Origin: Candidatus Thorarchaeota archaeon SMTZ1-45
GTDB taxonomy: Archaea; Asgardarchaeota; Thorarchaeia; Thorarchaeales; Thorarchaeaceae
DNA: 40,847 bases
NCBI GenBank assembly: GCA_001563335.1
Contig: LRSL01000083.1
Coordinates: 1 to 40,847, forward strand
Direction: 5' to 3'
This document shows, one piece after another, positions 938 through 10,724 of this stretch. The notes below the pieces were generated by a model, which saw only the letters and a program-made list of their open reading frames with translations, was not told where the DNA came from and did not search any database. The number at the start of each line of letters is the position of its first letter. Position 1 is the stretch's first letter. The translations under genes and the position numbers were made by a program.

Positions 938-1117
938 ATACTTCACCTCGTAACAGAAAAGAAAGCGTAGGAGATAGCATCAGTGCTGATGACTAACCTC
1001 TTATTCTTTAACACAGATGAATTCCGTAAGTTAGTTGTTTGAGCCATGATATTTCACAAGAAATACTGCTCAGATTTAGTATATATACCGAAGCCACGTA
1101 TGGGGGTCACAGAAAGA

Positions 1118-1134
1118 AGTCACAAATTGTGACT
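1118..1134. promoter_or_regulatory. Perfect 7-3-7 inverted repeat AGTCACA-AAT-TGTGACT, candidate operator
   Basis: Lies in the divergent intergenic region; an extra GTCACA half-site sits at 1106-1111. Confidence 0.4.
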
Positions 1135-1340
1135 AGGGTAAAGGCTCAATAGCAGATATGGTATACAACGTGATGATGAATCAATCTACCAAAACAACCC
1201 TCACTTTTTTTGGTACTCTGTAGAGATAGTCATATTGGTTTTTTTGATTCAACAACCAATCATGGCGCACTTCGTGGGAAAGACCTCATTCTTTATACAC
1301 AAAACAAAGTATGTGGCAGTTAGTTCTAGCGTGATATGCA

Positions 1341-1911: not shown

Positions 1912-2271
1912 ATGTCTCATAGACGTTCACTAAGATTTGCAAAAACGACCTGCCCAATATGCGGCAGTAAGGAAGTCGCTCGTGACGACAATAAAGGAGA
2001 CCTCCTCTGCACAAACTGCGGTCATATAATTGTCCGCACTGAAACGAGAGCTGTCGGTAAGTTCGACATTGCTCAGCATCTCAAACGAAATGGAAAAATG
2101 GACTTTGCTGGACTCCGACATGCTACAGGAGCTTCAGAGGACAAGTTATTCGGAGTAATTCGGAGCATGGTTGAAATGGGGCTTCTTTCGGATTTCCAAG
2201 GGCAATACTCTCTCACAAAGAAAGGACAGAGATGGTATCGCCAAAGATTGGGGCAGGAATGGGGATATTAG
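1912..2271 (+). CDS. TFIIB-type zinc ribbon fused to a winged-helix domain
   Basis: CPICGSKEVARDDNKGDLLCTNCGHII matches the TFIIB Zn-ribbon pattern; C-terminal wHTH (MVEMGLL...YSLTKKG); ATG 1912 (or 1900) preferred over 1795, which overlaps the upstream gene. Confidence 0.75.
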   Translation: MSHRRSLRFAKTTCPICGSKEVARDDNKGDLLCTNCGHIIVRTETRAVGKFDIAQHLKRNGKMDFAGLRHATGASEDKLFGVIRSMVEMGLLSDFQGQYSLTKKGQRWYRQRLGQEWGY

Positions 2272-2284: not shown

Positions 2285-2447
2285 AGGTTCCTCACATTAG
2301 TGGACACTATTTTTTCCAGAGAACATTTCTTTCTACTAGAAATAATAATACGTTAATTAATTTAGAACCTAGCAGAGTGTTGATTGATTTAATTTTCTTA
2401 ATGTCCCTAAGAAATATTTAATAAACAATTTAAATTTTGGTCCACTC

Positions 2448-2555
2448 AGGATTCGATTCGTTGATTTCTATAAATCTTCAATCTCCCTCCTACCACGCGA
2501 TAATCGTGCTGATTAAAAACCAGTACGATTCACACACACTGAATCGAATCCTATC
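2448..2555 (+). ncRNA. Candidate structured small RNA, copy A
   Basis: 13-bp closing stem AGGATTCGATTCG(2448-2460)/TGAATCGAATCCT(2540-2552); inner hairpin ATCGTGCTG/CAGTACGAT; core CTCCCTCCTACCACGCGATA shared with copy B; TATTTAATAAA about 25-30 nt upstream; G-U pairs favour the + strand. Confidence 0.6.
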
Positions 2556-2595
2556 TCTATATTTCGAGGCAAAAAAATCGCACTTGTTCGATCAA

Positions 2596-3432
2596 CTAGG
2601 ATTTTAGACGATCAAATGCATGGGATATCGTTTCTCTTTCCGAATCCAAATCACCAATTATCTCAATTCTATCAAGGCTGGTTTCACCCAGACCTCTCTT
2701 CCTAGCTTCCTGCAGAACAGGCATCTCTGCTGGTTCAAACCCTACGAGATATCCACCAACTGCTTCGACTGCAAAAGCGTCAGTACCCACAATGAGAAGG
2801 TTGGGAGTGACTGTGATTCTTTTCTTCTTAAAACCAAGGTAGACATGGGTTGCATCTATTACAGCAAGATCGATTCCGCCGATTGCTTCATAAATGTCTA
2901 ATAATGCAGTGGTCAGGTGTTTGTGGAATCTATGCTTCTTGGTATCTGGGATCATGCCAAGTAGATTCTTGATGACAAAGCCAAGGTTCATGAGGTCTTC
3001 AAGTCCAGCTTCTTCATATCTTCGGGGTACATGAGTACTGATGAATGTGTTTGGCTCAGAAAAAACTCGAGGGAATGGAACACTTTCCCCAGTAATTACA
3101 ACATCCTTCGTGTCTGTATCCTCTGATAGATTGAAAGGAACTACTCTATCATTGTAGCATTCTTCCCAAATCTCAAGTCGTTTCAATCCTGGTCCAGCTC
3201 CACTATCAGACTCAGTCACCCGAATGGATGGTGCCTTATCAAATGAATCAACAATTGATTGTAGAGTCTGAACAGTAGTGCAAATCCCAGTTTCAGAGTT
3301 GTAGATTCCAACCTTGACAAAAACAGGTATTTCAGTCGTATTAAGATGCTTCATGCCATCTATGTGTTCCAGAGCACTACTGAAGGCATCATTACTCACT
3401 ACAATAACAGTTGGCTTCAAGAGCAACACCAA
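2596..3432 (-). CDS. DUF362 domain protein
   Basis: VFVKVGI, ESDSG, IKNLLG, DLAVIDA, D-A-F-A-V-E-A and EARKRGLG motifs typical of DUF362. Confidence 0.75.
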   Translation of the reverse strand: MVLLLKPTVIVVSNDAFSSALEHIDGMKHLNTTEIPVFVKVGIYNSETGICTTVQTLQSIVDSFDKAPSIRVTESDSGAGPGLKRLEIWEECYNDRVVPFNLSEDTDTKDVVITGESVPFPRVFSEPNTFISTHVPRRYEEAGLEDLMNLGFVIKNLLGMIPDTKKHRFHKHLTTALLDIYEAIGGIDLAVIDATHVYLGFKKKRITVTPNLLIVGTDAFAVEAVGGYLVGFEPAEMPVLQEARKRGLGETSLDRIEIIGDLDSERETISHAFDRLKS

Positions 3433-3559
3433 GCCATGAAATCTAGATGACTGCTATTAAACAATGTAGGACTCAGCAATTATAATGAGCTGTCACACAA
3501 TTAATTTTTACAATTTCCTCTAAAGTAATCCTTAATATAGTATAGAATTAATTACTTAC

Positions 3560-3663
3560 AGGGTCTGGCGCAGAGGGCTTCAAACAAACTCCCCTCCTAA
3601 CCACGCGAATACCTACTAAGTAGGATACCTACTTTCCCTTTTTACCTCTGTGCCGACCTATCT
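3560..3663 (+). ncRNA. Candidate structured small RNA, copy B
   Basis: 15-bp closing stem GGGTC(T)GGCGCAGAGG(3561-3576)/CCTCTGTGCCGACCT(3645-3659); core CTCCCCTCCTAACCACGCGAATA followed by hairpin CCTAC-TAA-GTAGG; CCTTAATATA box about 25 nt upstream; ends CCTATCT like copy A. Confidence 0.6.
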
Positions 3664-3770
3664 TATTCTATCAAAACTAATTTGTTTTTCTCGTGCTTCG
3701 TAAAAGGATTAATCTGTCTTCAGACAGATATTTCATCTGAGCATTAGTGAAGCGTGTGAGGAGGTCTTAA

Positions 3771-4235
3771 GTGAGTCGGCATACTATTCGTAGGACTGGA
3801 CTAGCAATTGCATTGTCACTCATTGTGTTGATCATTGGTCTTTCGTTGGCATGGTTGGGAGGCTATGGCTATCTTCCCTTGGATCCACATCTTGTGGTTC
3901 CAACTACTATAATTCTCTTTTTCGCCACACTCCTATTGTCTGTGACGACCATGATGGCAGGAACCTCTTTTATTGCAAGACAAAATATCTCTACCATTCC
4001 TAAATCACCGATGGATAATGTCTTGAGTCGAGGAATTCGTGACTCTATGAGCGGCATTGAGAGGATAGTTCAAGCTCCTCCAGACGTTTCTATACGGGAA
4101 ATTCTAGTTAGAGATTGGTCTTTTCAGAAGAGGGTTTCCCACAACTGGTATGTGATTGATGAGAATGGAAATGATGTAACGGATTGGCCAATCTGTAATT
4201 GGGAGGGAATTGCAGTCATTCGTTTCGATGACTAA
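3771..4235 (+). CDS. Hypothetical membrane protein (2 N-terminal TM helices)
   Basis: GTG start with GAGGAGG SD; two hydrophobic segments followed by a soluble domain. Confidence 0.75.
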   Translation: MSRHTIRRTGLAIALSLIVLIIGLSLAWLGGYGYLPLDPHLVVPTTIILFFATLLLSVTTMMAGTSFIARQNISTIPKSPMDNVLSRGIRDSMSGIERIVQAPPDVSIREILVRDWSFQKRVSHNWYVIDENGNDVTDWPICNWEGIAVIRFDD

Positions 4236-4327: not shown

Positions 4328-4729
4328 ATGTTTCAATTTCTGATGAGGAAAGAGATGAAAGGTAGAGGAAGAAGACCCCTAAGAAGCCCACGAAGAATTT
4401 TCCGACCTTTTCAAAGGAGGAGGAAAGCACGAATAATAAGAGGATTATTCCGAATCAGTACAGGAGCTGCAATGTTGTATCTAATTGCTGGTACAAACAG
4501 AGCAGTAAAGTTGGATAAATCAGATGTACGAAAATTGGAAAGTGATGCTCAGAAGAATGTAGAAGACATGGATGAACACGAATTAATAGAAGCAATGGAA
4601 CGTCTAGGTATAAAGTCAATATCACTAACGAATGAAGAGAAACAGCTTGTATTGGTGGTCTGTCCCTATTGTGGCCATAAGAATGAACAAAGCATGAGAA
4701 AGTGTGAGAATTGTGGAGCAAGCATTTGA
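4328..4729 (+). CDS. Hypothetical protein with Arg-rich N-terminus and C-terminal zinc ribbon
   Basis: CPYC..CENC ribbon; alternative ATG at 4355 with a GAGGA SD. Confidence 0.75.
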   Translation: MFQFLMRKEMKGRGRRPLRSPRRIFRPFQRRRKARIIRGLFRISTGAAMLYLIAGTNRAVKLDKSDVRKLESDAQKNVEDMDEHELIEAMERLGIKSISLTNEEKQLVLVVCPYCGHKNEQSMRKCENCGASI

Positions 4730-4740
4730 TAATGGGTTAG

Positions 4741-5889
4741 TTACTTCTTGATAACCAATAAGGGTCCGTCAATCTTGACTGGTGCTTCCGGTGGAAGATC
4801 CAAGAGCCAGTCCTCAAGCTCTTCCATAGTATTGAACCGCAACAAAACCATCAATCGCTGAAGAGGAAGAGTGTCATATCTCGTGATGACCTTCTTTAAC
4901 TGAAACATTCTAAAAGCTTCGAGTTCAGCCTTTTGCTCCTCTAGACGTTCTTTCGATGTGTCAATCCATGGACTGTCCTTCTCAAAGTCCCAAATCTCAA
5001 CATTGCCATCCATAGACCCTGTGATGACCTGGTGATCATCAGGAGTGACCACCATCGAATGAACATTCTCTGTTGATGTAAGGCTATGTAGTAAAACTCC
5101 ACCACGAAGCAACCAAGCTCTTACAGTACCATCGGTGGAGCCAGTGATAACATGTTGTCCATCATTTGTGATGTGAATCATTATTACTGCAGTGTTGTGG
5201 CCGGTCATTGTCTTCAATAAAGTACCAGACTCGAGATCCCAAAGGTTGACAACTCCATCTTGACCCCCAGAGAGAATGTATCGCGAGTCCGCTGTTATGG
5301 CAAGTGTAGTCACATGTCCTTTATGGGCTTTGAGAGTCTTTAACTCGATACCTAGCTCAAAGTCCCAAATCCAAATCATGCCAAGCGTATCAGTAGTTGG
5401 AGCTTTTCTACTGCCACAGAGCATGTGACGACCATCAGGACTAATGGTGATTGAGTAAATTCCTTGTGAGTGTTCTAGATATCGAAGCAGGATACCACGG
5501 TCAACATCCCAAAAGCGGACAATTCCATCATCGCCCCCGGTAACAATATACCTCTGATCAGGACTGACAGCGACCGACCGGATGTGTGCTGAATTAGGTG
5601 CCAATGAACTCCGCAGAGATTTTGTTTCTATGTTCCAAATTTTCACAGCAAGGTCTTTGTCTGCAATAGAAACCAATTTTTTGTCATCAGGCATTAATAC
5701 GAGACCATAGACAGGACCGTTATGACCAAGAAACTTGTGTACTTCTTTTCCGGAAGTGATATCCCAAAGCCGAATCGAAGCATCTTGACCACCAGAAACT
5801 AAAGTTTGTCCATCATTTGTTATGGCAAGAGACCATACAGTAAATTCATGCCCTTCTAGTTTAATATTAGGGATTAATTCCCCTTCCAA
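4741..5889 (-). CDS. WD40 beta-propeller protein with C-terminal PCI-like winged helix
   Basis: About 7 GH...WD repeats; coiled linker; tail YDTLPLQRLMVLLRFNTMEELEDWLLDL...VKIDG; GAGGAG SD before TTG. Confidence 0.9.
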   Translation of the reverse strand: MEGELIPNIKLEGHEFTVWSLAITNDGQTLVSGGQDASIRLWDITSGKEVHKFLGHNGPVYGLVLMPDDKKLVSIADKDLAVKIWNIETKSLRSSLAPNSAHIRSVAVSPDQRYIVTGGDDGIVRFWDVDRGILLRYLEHSQGIYSITISPDGRHMLCGSRKAPTTDTLGMIWIWDFELGIELKTLKAHKGHVTTLAITADSRYILSGGQDGVVNLWDLESGTLLKTMTGHNTAVIMIHITNDGQHVITGSTDGTVRAWLLRGGVLLHSLTSTENVHSMVVTPDDHQVITGSMDGNVEIWDFEKDSPWIDTSKERLEEQKAELEAFRMFQLKKVITRYDTLPLQRLMVLLRFNTMEELEDWLLDLPPEAPVKIDGPLLVIKK

Positions 5890-6037: not shown

Positions 6038-8461
6038 CTACTGGACGGCTTCCACTTTGGCTGATTCCATGCCAAAATCAGCGGGTTTTGTGCTCTTCCT
6101 TATTGCCCAGATAGTAATCATGGTCATTACCGCCAATGCAGCCAATAAGGCCAGATTGATAGTCATGTCAGCACCAAACTTGTACACTGTCAGCATTGGT
6201 GCTAGAATCAGGCTTAGAAGATTGACCACTTTGATCATTGGATTAAGAGCGGGACCAGCAGTGTCTTTGAGAGGATCACCTACAGTATCACCAACAACAC
6301 CACATTTGTGCCGCTCAGAGCCTTTGCCTGTATTATGCGCAACATCGCAAGGCTCGTCTTCAATGGACTTCTTTGCGTTATCCCATGCACCTCCTGCATT
6401 GGACATAAACACAGCTAGCAATTGGCCTGAAATGATGATACCACCAAGGAATCCACCTAAAGCAGCTTCTTGGAACAAGATGCCGACCATTATTGGAATA
6501 CTGACAGTAATAGCAGCTAGAGAGATGAGCTCTTTCTGAGCTGCAGTTGTTGAGATTCCAACAGCTCTGTCATAATCTGGTTTAACAGTGCCTTCAAGGA
6601 TTCCTGGAATCTTAAACTGGCGCCGGACTTCTTTGACCATCTCGCCAGCAGCTCTTGTTACAGCCTTCATGTTCAGAGCAGAGAAAAGCCATGGTAGTGC
6701 AGCTCCGAGAAGTACTCCTGAGAAGACCAAAGGATCGTCTATTCGAATACCAGTTTCTAGCAGTCCTGTGTATGCTGCATAGCTGTTGAACAGGCTAACT
6801 GCAGCTATAACCGCAGAAGCAATCGCTACTCCTTTGGTGATGGCTTTGGTTGTGTTACCAACTGCATCAAGCTCATGCATTGTCCTTTGGGACTCATGAT
6901 CAAAGTCTCCTGGTGAGAGCTCTCCAATACCAGCAGCGTTGTCACTGATAGGCCCATAGCTATCCATTGCTACATTGTTACCAGTGTGTGACAACATTCC
7001 AATACCAATCAAAGCAATACCGTATAGAGTCCAGACAGCTCCTGAGATATCAGCTACAAAGAATGGTGAAAGGGCAACAGCAATAGGGTGCAAGAACAGC
7101 GCAGCTGCAATTCCGAAGGTTGTCACAATCACAACGAGCGCAGCGACTGTCGACTCATAGCCTGCAACCAGACCAGACAGTATAAAGGTCGCAGTACCCG
7201 TATCTGCAGATTTTACTATTTCCTGAACTGGTGGTTTCTTTAGAGATGTAAAGTAGCTAGTTATGGGATTGAAGGAAACAGCCAGCATAACACCAACAGC
7301 TACCAATATTCCGAATCTAAGATCTCCAACATAGAACCAAGAGAGAAGCATTGTCAGTGTGATAGTAAATGCGCTTGAAGCCTCATATGAGAGGAACATC
7401 GCTTTTTCTGCATAAACAGCTCTCTTCCTAAGTAGTTTAGGCCAAACAGGAACCATAAATGTACCGATCATTGATGATATGACTCCAACAGCCCTGACAA
7501 AGAGTGGGAATACAACTAATGCGAATGCACCACCAGGTAGTAGTGAGGCATTATACGCAGGATCAAGATACAGCACAATGGCAAGAATCAGAGATGAAAC
7601 GATTGTCACTTCGTATGACTCGAAAATGTCCGCTGCCATTCCAGCGCAGTCACCAACATTATCGCCAACAAGGTCAGCAACAACAGCGGCGTTTCTAGGA
7701 TCATCCTCAGGTAGTCCATGTTCTACTTTTCCAACTAGGTCAGCACCAACATCGGCTGCTTTAGTATATATACCACCACCGACTCTCATAAAGAGAGCAA
7801 GTAATGTGCCACCAAGACCAAAACCTAGTAGTGCATCAGGCGCTGCAATACCATAAATGATGAAGATTGCAGTTCCACCAAGAAGACCAAGACCATCAGT
7901 CAACATGCCTGTAAAGGTACCACCACGATAGGAAATTGTCAATGCTCGGTTGTATCTATTTTCACCTTCACGTGTAGCTTGTGCAACTCGTATGTTTGAT
8001 TCAACAGCGATTCTCATCCCAAGTTGTCCTACAATGAGAGAGAAGCTTGCACCAAGAACAAAGGCAAGTGATCGACCAATACCAACCACTATCTGAATCT
8101 GTTGAAGAACTGCGAGAGCTGCTGGCTCTTGTGCAACAATCTGTTCTCTAGTAATACCCCAAAGGGCAAGAGTACCATCTTCAGGAATTGTTACATAAAC
8201 TGTGAAGAAAAGGGCACCTGAGAGCACTATCAGAATGGGTAGTATTGTTTTAAGCTGTCTACCAAGATACGATAATGCACCTTCTCTTATACCATTCCAG
8301 ACTGATTGCATTTGCTCTGTTCCCTTAGGGAGTGAAAGAACATCTCTTCGGAGCCACCAAGCATACACGAGACTGGCAAAAGCAGCTAGAACAACAGTTA
8401 GAATCATCAACTGCTCAAACCAATGCATTCCAGCAAATGTCTCGAATAATTGCATAATCAT
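6038..8461 (-). CDS. hppA: Membrane-bound H+-translocating pyrophosphatase, K+-independent type
   Basis: GGGIYTKAADVGADLVGKVE, DDPRN, DNVGD, DxYGPISDNA, GGAWDNAKK, GDTVGDPLKD; GNTTKAITKG (Lys) marks K+-independence; the start may be the second ATG at 8455. Confidence 0.95.
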   Translation of the reverse strand: MIMQLFETFAGMHWFEQLMILTVVLAAFASLVYAWWLRRDVLSLPKGTEQMQSVWNGIREGALSYLGRQLKTILPILIVLSGALFFTVYVTIPEDGTLALWGITREQIVAQEPAALAVLQQIQIVVGIGRSLAFVLGASFSLIVGQLGMRIAVESNIRVAQATREGENRYNRALTISYRGGTFTGMLTDGLGLLGGTAIFIIYGIAAPDALLGFGLGGTLLALFMRVGGGIYTKAADVGADLVGKVEHGLPEDDPRNAAVVADLVGDNVGDCAGMAADIFESYEVTIVSSLILAIVLYLDPAYNASLLPGGAFALVVFPLFVRAVGVISSMIGTFMVPVWPKLLRKRAVYAEKAMFLSYEASSAFTITLTMLLSWFYVGDLRFGILVAVGVMLAVSFNPITSYFTSLKKPPVQEIVKSADTGTATFILSGLVAGYESTVAALVVIVTTFGIAAALFLHPIAVALSPFFVADISGAVWTLYGIALIGIGMLSHTGNNVAMDSYGPISDNAAGIGELSPGDFDHESQRTMHELDAVGNTTKAITKGVAIASAVIAAVSLFNSYAAYTGLLETGIRIDDPLVFSGVLLGAALPWLFSALNMKAVTRAAGEMVKEVRRQFKIPGILEGTVKPDYDRAVGISTTAAQKELISLAAITVSIPIMVGILFQEAALGGFLGGIIISGQLLAVFMSNAGGAWDNAKKSIEDEPCDVAHNTGKGSERHKCGVVGDTVGDPLKDTAGPALNPMIKVVNLLSLILAPMLTVYKFGADMTINLALLAALAVMTMITIWAIRKSTKPADFGMESAKVEAVQ

Positions 8462-10647: not shown

Positions 10648-10724
10648 TGGTGGACCGAGCGAGATTTGAACTCGCGACCTTCTGGATGCAAACCAGACGA
10701 TCTGCCAGGCTGATCTATCGGCCC
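10648..10724 (-). tRNA. tRNA-Ala(UGC), intronless, CCA encoded
   Basis: GGGCCGATAGATCAGCCTGGCAGATCGTCTGGTTTGCATCCAGAAGGTCGCGAGTTCAAATCTCGCTCGGTCCACCA; cloverleaf, TGC anticodon, G3:U70 Ala identity pair. Confidence 0.97.

Follow-up and report, generated by a model that had tools for sequence, protein, structure and literature searches.

An invariant pyrimidine-rich loop in a predicted new family of small RNAs from Thorarchaeota

Contig LRSL01000083.1 of Candidatus Thorarchaeota archaeon SMTZ1-45 (40,847 nucleotides (nt), read on the forward strand and called the window below) carries two short intergenic elements, A and B, which lie in direct orientation on either side of a DUF362 gene. An initial annotation of the window had proposed that they are paralogous structured RNAs which display a core resembling the anti-Shine-Dalgarno (anti-SD) sequence of 16S rRNA. 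What kind of genetic element are A and B, and what may their core do? Both structured elements are present in the proposed arrangement, and covariance models refined their boundaries (Table 1). We conclude with high confidence that A and B are both genes of a single new family of structured small noncoding RNAs (ncRNAs), confined, as far as searched, to the family-level group of Thorarchaeota (Asgard archaea) to which the window belongs. This group is designated f1 below, the genus of the window g1, and its genome G000. How the loop of these RNAs works is a question to which we can give only a tentative answer.

Two structured elements and their family

Throughout the family, a pyrimidine-rich loop of 45-60 nt stands on a closing stalk of 13-17 base pairs (bp). 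The plus-strand fold of A reached -30.2 kcal/mol (z -6.2) and that of B -32.1 kcal/mol (z -4.0), and for neither element was any of 200 shuffled sequences as stable. The minus-strand folds were weaker, with z of -3.8 for A and -1.3 for B. The stalk sequences of A and B are unlike each other. Common to both is the core CTTCAA..CTCCC(C)TCCTA(A)CCACGCGA(A)TA, which is followed by a hairpin and a spacer, and ATCT stands directly 3' of each element. The genome (3.54 Mb) contains exactly two occurrences of a 14-15 nt stretch of the core, those in A and B. Over 17-28 nt the core CUCCCYUCCUA(A)CCACGCGA(A)UA shows no variation across the family, whereas the neighbouring proteins drop to 50-80% identity. 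That the core stays unchanged while its surroundings diverge indicates a function under very strong constraint. The loop is predicted to be mostly unpaired, with the core displayed as a single strand: the mean predicted unpaired probability of the core was 0.84 over 38 B and 19 A sequences, in line with the single-stranded core of the initial annotation. As a separate observation, a GGG...CCC hairpin in the 3' trailer of 16S rRNA contains the 9-mer ACUUUCCCU of the B tail (3631-3639), in the same orientation, at three of four g1 loci (L098-L101), which may be a coincidence.

Table 1. Coordinates of A and B, their parts and the genes around them (aa, amino acids; SD, Shine-Dalgarno sequence)
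Feature	Position	Strand	Remarks
Kite gene (ScpB-like, tandem winged-helix), 170 aa	1341..1853	+	AF2 (AlphaFold2) pLDDT 77; Foldseek top ScpB of ScpAB, JetB, Nse1/Nse3, E 2e-5 to 4e-4
ZnR-wH gene, 118 aa (TFIIB-type Zn-ribbon and winged helix, wH)	1915..2271	+	PF08271 E 1.8e-8; AF2 pLDDT 81; MarR/AspA/Sso10a-like wH
TATA-like box of A (TTTAATAAA)	2417..2425	+	-31 to -23 from first stalk base
RNA A, g1-specific paralogue	2448..2552	+	105 nt; model R3 114.8 bits, E 1.2e-24
A closing stalk	2448-2460 with 2540-2552	+	13 bp
A 5' hairpin	2463-2467 with 2472-2476	+	
A invariant core	2476-2502	+	
A variable inner hairpin	2503-2511 with 2521-2529	+	
A CA-rich spacer	2530-2539	+	
DUF362 gene, between A and B, outside the RNA family	2596..3432	-	PF04015 E 1.3e-11; convergent with A
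TATA box of B (CTTAATATA)	3531..3539	+	-30 to -22 from first stalk G
RNA B, ancestral family-wide gene	3561..3659	+	99 nt; R1 95.2 bits, R2 80.1 bits
B closing stalk	3561-3576 with 3645-3659	+	15-16 bp
B invariant core, CCUCCU inside	3578-3611	+	
B hairpin	3612-3616 with 3620-3624	+	
B conserved tail CCUACUUUCCCU	3628-3639	+	
154-aa membrane protein	3771-4235	+	strong SD GAGGAGG 3757-3763; starts 112 nt after B
133-aa basic protein, C-terminal Zn-ribbon	4328-4729	+	follows the 154-aa membrane protein
WD40 gene, seven-bladed	4741-5889	-	conserved neighbour downstream of RNA genes
H+-pyrophosphatase	6038-8461	-	conserved neighbour downstream of RNA genes

The initial annotation had noted that the closing stem is kept in structure rather than in sequence, and the family alignments confirmed this. 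In alignment A5 (53 distinct rows), which like A10 and A11 was fitted to the model structure and is biased toward it, double compensatory changes of the B stalk occurred at 16 of 16 pairs, 90% of the cells were paired compared with 34-50% when the 3' partner was slid by 1-3 columns, and none of 500 column shuffles matched the observed covariation score. A set of 35 distinct metagenome sequences from outside the model-building set gave 88.8% paired cells (27-56% when slid) and once more double changes at all 16 pairs, with a covariation score of 0.628 vs. 0.239. For the A-type copies on A10, 92.6% of the cells were paired vs. 21-49% after sliding, and double changes were seen at 18 of 26 pairs, all eight pairs of the variable inner hairpin included, a count that is inflated by two non-A rows in this alignment (one B copy and one antisense sequence).

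The kind of non-canonical pair indicates the strand that is under selection. The closing stalk of B contained 78 G.U or U.G cells and 20 A.C or C.A cells in 40 distinct sequences. This excess points to selection on the plus-strand RNA and not on duplex DNA, a cruciform or the opposite transcript, and thus an argument that had been drawn from the G-U pairs of the two window copies applies family-wide.

The homologues that the initial annotation had asked for were found. The exact core was present in 23 of the 27 other g1 genomes, mostly as a pair of copies on one strand, one of the A type and one of the B type, with an A-B spacing of 212-7905 nt and a content between them that differs among species; other f1 genera have it as the B type alone. 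A covariance model built from 14 B sequences (R1), applied with the strict filters used for large genome sets, detected one B copy in 48 of 86 f1 genomes, which represent 13 of 16 genera. With a model rebuilt from 40 family-wide B copies (R2), B was found in 23 of the 26 good f1 genomes of a phylum-wide sample. One f1 genome missed by R2 (G070) carries the element with a 90-nt insert, and in another (G029) the contig stops 357 nt past the upstream gene. Outside f1, R2 matched in one of 124 Asgard genomes from 26 other families; this match (G175) was marginal, was present in one of 22 genomes of its own genus, and was attributed to chance. The A-type covariance model (R3) detected A in 21 of the 86 f1 genomes, all of them g1, and in none of 58 genomes of the other 15 genera. 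Because B is family-wide and A is restricted to g1, we consider B to be the ancestral single-copy gene and A a g1 duplicate. The term multicopy used in the initial annotation is therefore replaced by one ancestral gene (B) per genome and a genus-specific duplicate.

Metagenomes extended this picture. In a scan by exact 16-mer, in which 80 loci of 97 stretches were examined, R2 gave 41 matches in 39 of the 80 loci, and the rest were chance 16-mers. A further metagenome match (L203, E 0.009) fell inside an open reading frame (ORF) of 370 aa and was treated as chance. The viral contigs of IMG/VR contained no exact B core and six A-core 15-mers, none with an R2 match. Recurrent one-mismatch matches (CTTCTATCCACGCGA) were located within conserved coding sequence and are unrelated.

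The claim that the family is new to Rfam was also borne out. A scan of the whole window with Rfam 15 at gathering thresholds returned only a tRNA-Ala (10648-10724), and ARAGORN found this tRNA alone in the window and none at A or B. Region 2300-3800 gave only sub-threshold, chance-level matches at E up to 10, and the loci of nine relatives gave no match at E up to 1. Titles and opening lines of abstracts in the literature on Asgard and Thorarchaeota ncRNAs mention no such RNA, and supplementary ncRNA lists (e.g. PMC7015854, PMC7594248) could bear on its novelty. None of the papers in the literature library searched contains the core string. The family is ready for entry in Rfam, as it has a seed alignment and a structure, evidence of covariation and a taxonomic range that is defined. 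It represents an RNA that is near-universal and single-copy in one Asgard family. The Asgard archaea are the closest known relatives of eukaryotes, and their ncRNA repertoire is almost unexplored.

The TATA-like box that had been noticed upstream of each element is a family feature. In nearly all genera a box of the (C)TTAATATA type precedes the first stalk G, at -31 to -22, and 37 of the 40 distinct B rows and 19 of the 24 distinct A rows have a TATA-like motif within -36 to -18. Upstream of the TATA box of B is a conserved stretch resembling a transcription factor B recognition element (BRE). Judged by the placement of TATA box and BRE, the first G of the stalk would be the start of transcription. 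Pyrimidines dominate the 3' flank (ATCTTATTCT, ACCTCTCTTC).

Since A faces the convergent DUF362 gene and the WD40 gene downstream is convergent as well (20 of 52 loci, in 12 of which it ends within ~60 nt of the 3' end of the element), the chromosomal copies are not 5' leaders. The initial annotation had reached the same view from A, and it holds for the chromosomal copies; it does not hold for a second class. Five non-syntenic copies keep the core on a self-complementary stalk of their own, without a TATA box: L175, L188 (identical to L226) and L167 from metagenomes, and two extra copies in G020 (L116 and L036). In this leader class every copy is followed by an SD-type motif at +7 to +14, which is GGAGG in three copies and AGGAG in the other two, and by a start codon at +16 to +27, whereas none of the stand-alone rows (40 B and 24 A) has an SD-like motif within 25 nt. 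The ORFs behind the leaders encode 87, 58, 41 and 371 aa (that of L167 is not clear), and those of 87 and 41 aa contain CxxC...CxxC motifs.

Copy L175 has as neighbours a UvsW-like helicase, an N6/N4 DNA methyltransferase, a clamp-loader-like ATPase and an S8 protease, and L188 lies next to a DpdA homologue. This gene content looks like that of a putative virus or plasmid; no integrase was seen beside the leader-class copies on such mobile-element-like contigs. If the contigs are of this kind, mobile elements would be reusing a regulatory RNA module of their host. The G020 bin (contigs C73, C380 and C409) contains four core copies, which are A, B and the two leader-class copies on short contigs (L036 on C73 and L116 on C380), and these short contigs are possibly mobile elements that were binned together with their host.

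In five variants of the family (the B copies of G068 and G070, the A copies of G027 and G003, and a second copy in G009) the core is interrupted at one and the same place, where an insertion separates the C-run (CCUCC with or without the UAA behind it) from ACCACGCGA. This insertion hot-spot implies that the core consists of two modules. When these five variants are folded to minimum energy, the C-run is always paired with a G-run (GGGGA, AGGGA) that lies at the insert's 3' end, which suggests that the natural state of the C-run is a helix with a G-rich strand.

Possible modes of action of the loop

The 16S rRNA of g1 ends in GGAUCACCUCCU with CCUCCU in four of four full-length genes, as expected from the initial annotation, and the identical hexamer is present in the loop of the RNAs. 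Anti-SD RNAs as a class have an unpaired stretch complementary to the SD consensus, and CCUCCU, within the core predicted to be unpaired, is such a stretch. In the mechanism that we favour, the loop would be the working surface, and the C-run with its anti-SD hexamer would bind G-rich, SD-type sequences by pairing. For the stand-alone RNAs of the chromosome this would be an action in trans. The leader-class copies would act in cis, as a hairpin 7-14 nt upstream of GGAGG or AGGAG and the start codon. The adjoining AACCACGCGAAUA module may form a second recognition surface, probably for a protein. We hold this anti-SD-type pairing, in both its cis form (leader class) and its trans form (chromosomal RNAs), only tentatively, at somewhat below even chances. 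If the loop does work in this way, it would offer a handle on translation control in a lineage that is hard to grow.

Besides the bias of the alignments mentioned above, a number of points weigh against this mechanism. The AACCACGCGA half of the core is as invariant as the C-run and is left unexplained by SD pairing. Such pairing needs only CCUCC, which leaves the invariance of AACCACGCGAAUA without an SD logic. The insertion variants would mask their C-run in cis, and the G070 copy has lost CCUCC (it reads CCCCUCAG) and retains AACCACGCGAAUA. Pairing of the loop with an SD sequence downstream would demand a pseudoknot across the 16-bp stalk. The ends, abundance and strand of the transcripts are inferred.

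The target searches weigh in the same direction. A role as rRNA guide was rejected since the best duplex energies of core and tail with the 16S and 23S rRNAs of a g1 member, flanks included, equalled those of shuffled sequences (-27.2 vs. a mean of -26.7, and -26.2 vs. -26.2). An antisense partner was rejected as well: the genome contained 205, 64 and 37 complementary 10-, 11- and 12-mers, compared with 265, 64 and 16 for reversed controls, and the excess of 12-mers is due to the opposite strand of the elements themselves. SD sites with extended complementarity were scattered stretches of 10-13 nt only, few of them before ORFs; generic GGAGG sites are plentiful, with 907 before ORFs. With tRNA, RNase P RNA and signal recognition particle (SRP) RNA the best z was -3.4 (28 targets, 40 shuffles), and no long helix was formed. 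Thus no specific target emerged among rRNA, antisense words, SD sites and these stable RNAs. Of the trans-acting anti-SD seed that it had put forward, the match of CCUCCU to the 16S end and the predicted unpaired state stand, whereas no specific target was found, the AACCACGCGA half is left unexplained, and the seed keeps the status of a proposal. Two further candidates were dropped. A near-perfect partner was sought with a pattern allowing up to two mismatches to the core or its complement, which gave 17 genome matches (15 besides A and B) vs. 33 for the reversed-pattern control. A mimic or fragment of the 16S 3' end was considered, and only the hexamer CCUCCU is in common.

As the main alternative, the RNA may be a protein-binding scaffold or decoy, with the invariant loop as the site of a sequence-specific protein and base pairing in a minor role. 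We regard this as possible though rather doubtful. The protein could be the upstream ZnR-wH, which is as conserved as the RNA, or it could belong to conserved machinery, for instance to the ribosome or to RNA polymerase, and the leader copies would then be translational operators to which this protein or a relative of it binds. The invariance of the whole 17-28 nt core amid diverging neighbours is typical of RNAs that contact conserved machinery. The lack of an outstanding complementary partner in the genome (the 15 further matches vs. 33 in the control) and the division of the core into two modules by the insertion hot-spot are also consistent with a scaffold. ZnR-wH is a candidate partner and directly precedes the RNA genes in nearly all relatives, and the kite gene is context only. 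Counted by locus, ZnR-wH is upstream of B in 32 of 52 cases in genomes and in 22 of 39 in metagenomes, and in most loci outside g1 B follows it on the same strand at a distance of 126-390 nt. Full-length orthologues of ZnR-wH were present in 26 of 26 f1 genomes and, with 44% identity, in the one genome of f2, the sister family; TFB ribbons were all that matched elsewhere. An invariant basic-aromatic C-terminal tail (RWYRQRLGQEWGY in f1, KWYHSELGKQWGY in f2; alignment A7) and the CxxC...CxxC motifs of the two leader-class ORFs of 87 and 41 aa fit the same idea. On the other side, f2 keeps ZnR-wH in the same operon without the RNA: in its genome (G037) no RNA gene was found downstream of ZnR-wH, either by the model with filters off or by eye, and no core motif was found. 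Moreover, the wH domain of ZnR-wH resembles the DNA-binding MarR and AspA folds, and the leader-class ORFs showed no significant similarity to ZnR-wH.

A bolder form of the scaffold idea makes the RNA a dedicated partner of ZnR-wH and an RNA component of Asgard chromosome organisation, with viruses or plasmids carrying copies of the loop as leaders of small Zn-ribbon genes to tap or evade the system. This we consider improbable.

The position of the elements at the 3' end of an operon for SMC, kleisin and kite proteins raises the question whether the 28-bp core acts as DNA, as a protein-binding site (centromere-like, for SMC loading, an origin box or an att site) with an incidental inverted repeat. 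The nearest folds of the adjoining wH protein include the centromere-binding protein AspA, and the same core lies on mobile-element-like contigs, as expected of att sites. However, the asymmetry of 78 G.U vs. 20 A.C cells in the stalk, which reflects selection on the plus-strand RNA, and the promoter at a fixed distance make a DNA-level role very unlikely. The core is also non-palindromic and occurs once per genome, and the mobile copies have complete self-complementary stalks rather than half-sites, with no integrase seen alongside.

No better placed, in our judgement, is the idea that the chromosomal copies are cis parts of neighbouring mRNAs, either the 3' untranslated region or terminator of ZnR-wH or the 5' leader of the next gene. 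In its favour are the same-strand position shortly past ZnR-wH in most loci outside g1, the leader class, which shows that the fold can serve as a 5' leader, and the SD-bearing plus-strand gene that begins 112 nt after B in the window. Against it stand the conserved TATA box between the ZnR-wH stop codon and the element, the convergent WD40 gene so close to the element in 12 of 20 loci, the convergent DUF362 gene that A faces, and the absence of an SD-like motif within 25 nt of any of the 64 stand-alone copies.

Finally, a Y- or vault-RNA-like component of a Ro/TROVE particle and a remnant of a DNA repeat or miniature inverted-repeat transposable element (MITE), to which the paired ends with a pyrimidine-rich loop in ~100 nt and the direct repeats around a gene had lent some appeal, are essentially excluded, the former because TROVE (PF05731) had no match in the window genome (88% complete, the only genome searched; Deinococcus and Bacteroides controls were positive) and Y_RNA and vault models had none at E up to 10 (region 2300-3800) or 1 (nine relatives), and the latter, which the initial annotation had itself named as a refutation, because there are one or two copies per genome, each with its own promoter and self-complementary ends, no target-site duplications, a stem sequence that drifts with compensation, and a strand bias of G.U over A.C.

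Comparison with known RNAs

The nearest analogues in function are C-rich regulators of the anti-SD type, which include the UCCC-loop small RNAs (sRNAs) of Firmicutes, e.g. RsaE/RoxS, and hairpins of RNAIII. In archaea, sRNA162 of Methanosarcina mazei reportedly acts on mRNAs encoded in cis as well as in trans (PMC3510493). Both sRNA162 and RsaE/RoxS share with A and B the small size and an unpaired C-rich stretch complementary to GGAGG-type sites, a separate transcription being predicted for A and B, and the cis and trans action of sRNA162 parallels the stand-alone and leader classes found here. Unlike these regulators, A and B have an end-to-end stalk of 13-17 bp instead of short hairpins, and their C-run is part of a 17-28 nt invariant block, one half of which (AACCACGCGAAUA) has no SD logic. 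The bipartite invariant loop is used both as a stand-alone gene and as a leader. No relationship in sequence or in Rfam was found, and our target searches gave no specific target.

Y RNAs (RF00019) and the bacterial Y-like RNAs bound by Ro60/Rsr are ~100 nt long and have a long end-paired stem and a pyrimidine-rich internal loop. A and B are similar in size, in their paired ends and in the loop. However, the conserved part of A and B is the loop and not a bulged stem helix, and their stem sequence varies across genera. The likeness to Y and vault RNAs drawn in the initial annotation is thus one of architecture, as neither a match to the Y_RNA model nor a TROVE/Ro60 gene in the window genome supports kinship.

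Archaeal C/D and H/ACA guide RNAs are like A and B in being small, in their terminal pairing and in their conserved single-stranded, guide-like stretches. The consensus boxes of C/D sRNAs are RUGAUGA (C) and CUGA (D). Alignments A2-A6 contained no conserved pairs of C and D boxes and no ACA box, the only snoRNA match was sub-threshold (15 bits vs. a gathering threshold of 85), and complementarity to rRNA was at the level of shuffled sequences. Autoregulatory mRNA leaders, such as ribosomal-protein operators, mimic the primary RNA site of a protein. The family of A and B resembles them in that one motif occurs both as a stand-alone RNA and upstream of an SD sequence and start codon; no similarity to rRNA was found, and the binding protein is a candidate only.

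Neighbouring genes

The kite gene is upstream of B in 26 of 52 genome loci. In a near-complete relative, the operon consists of a 1125-aa SMC (PF02463), a 220-aa protein in the kleisin position, and then kite and ZnR-wH; the 220-aa protein had no family match. The window genome has SMC and the 220-aa gene on another contig (C23 842-4805, minus strand). In other genera these two genes are contiguous with kite and ZnR-wH on one strand; either the operon is split in g1, or the separation is an assembly break. The ZnR-wH gene has a conserved TAGTTTTATCA TATA box ~30 nt before its ATG and no SD sequence, so its mRNA is probably leaderless. For the same reasons, a regulation of the adjacent ZnR-wH by the RNA through an SD sequence was rejected.

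Upstream of the kite gene, the ORF-poor gap 756-1286 contains a conserved element of ~130 nt (~1004-1135, plus strand), with a TATA-like TTTAGTATATATAC followed by a palindrome GTCACA..TGTGAC. It has four copies in the genome (contigs C83, C92, C86 and C47) with 81-93% identity and is kept upstream of the kite gene in relatives. This element looks like a shared promoter or operator module or another small RNA gene.

Two further features concern rRNA genes. On contig C205 of G017 the 16S (137705-139206) and 23S (65200-68309) genes lie on the same strand ~70 kb apart and are thus unlinked. In G014 the 16S match extends over 2293 nt but accounts for 1464 model positions, an excess that suggests an inserted stretch of ~800 nt, perhaps an intron.

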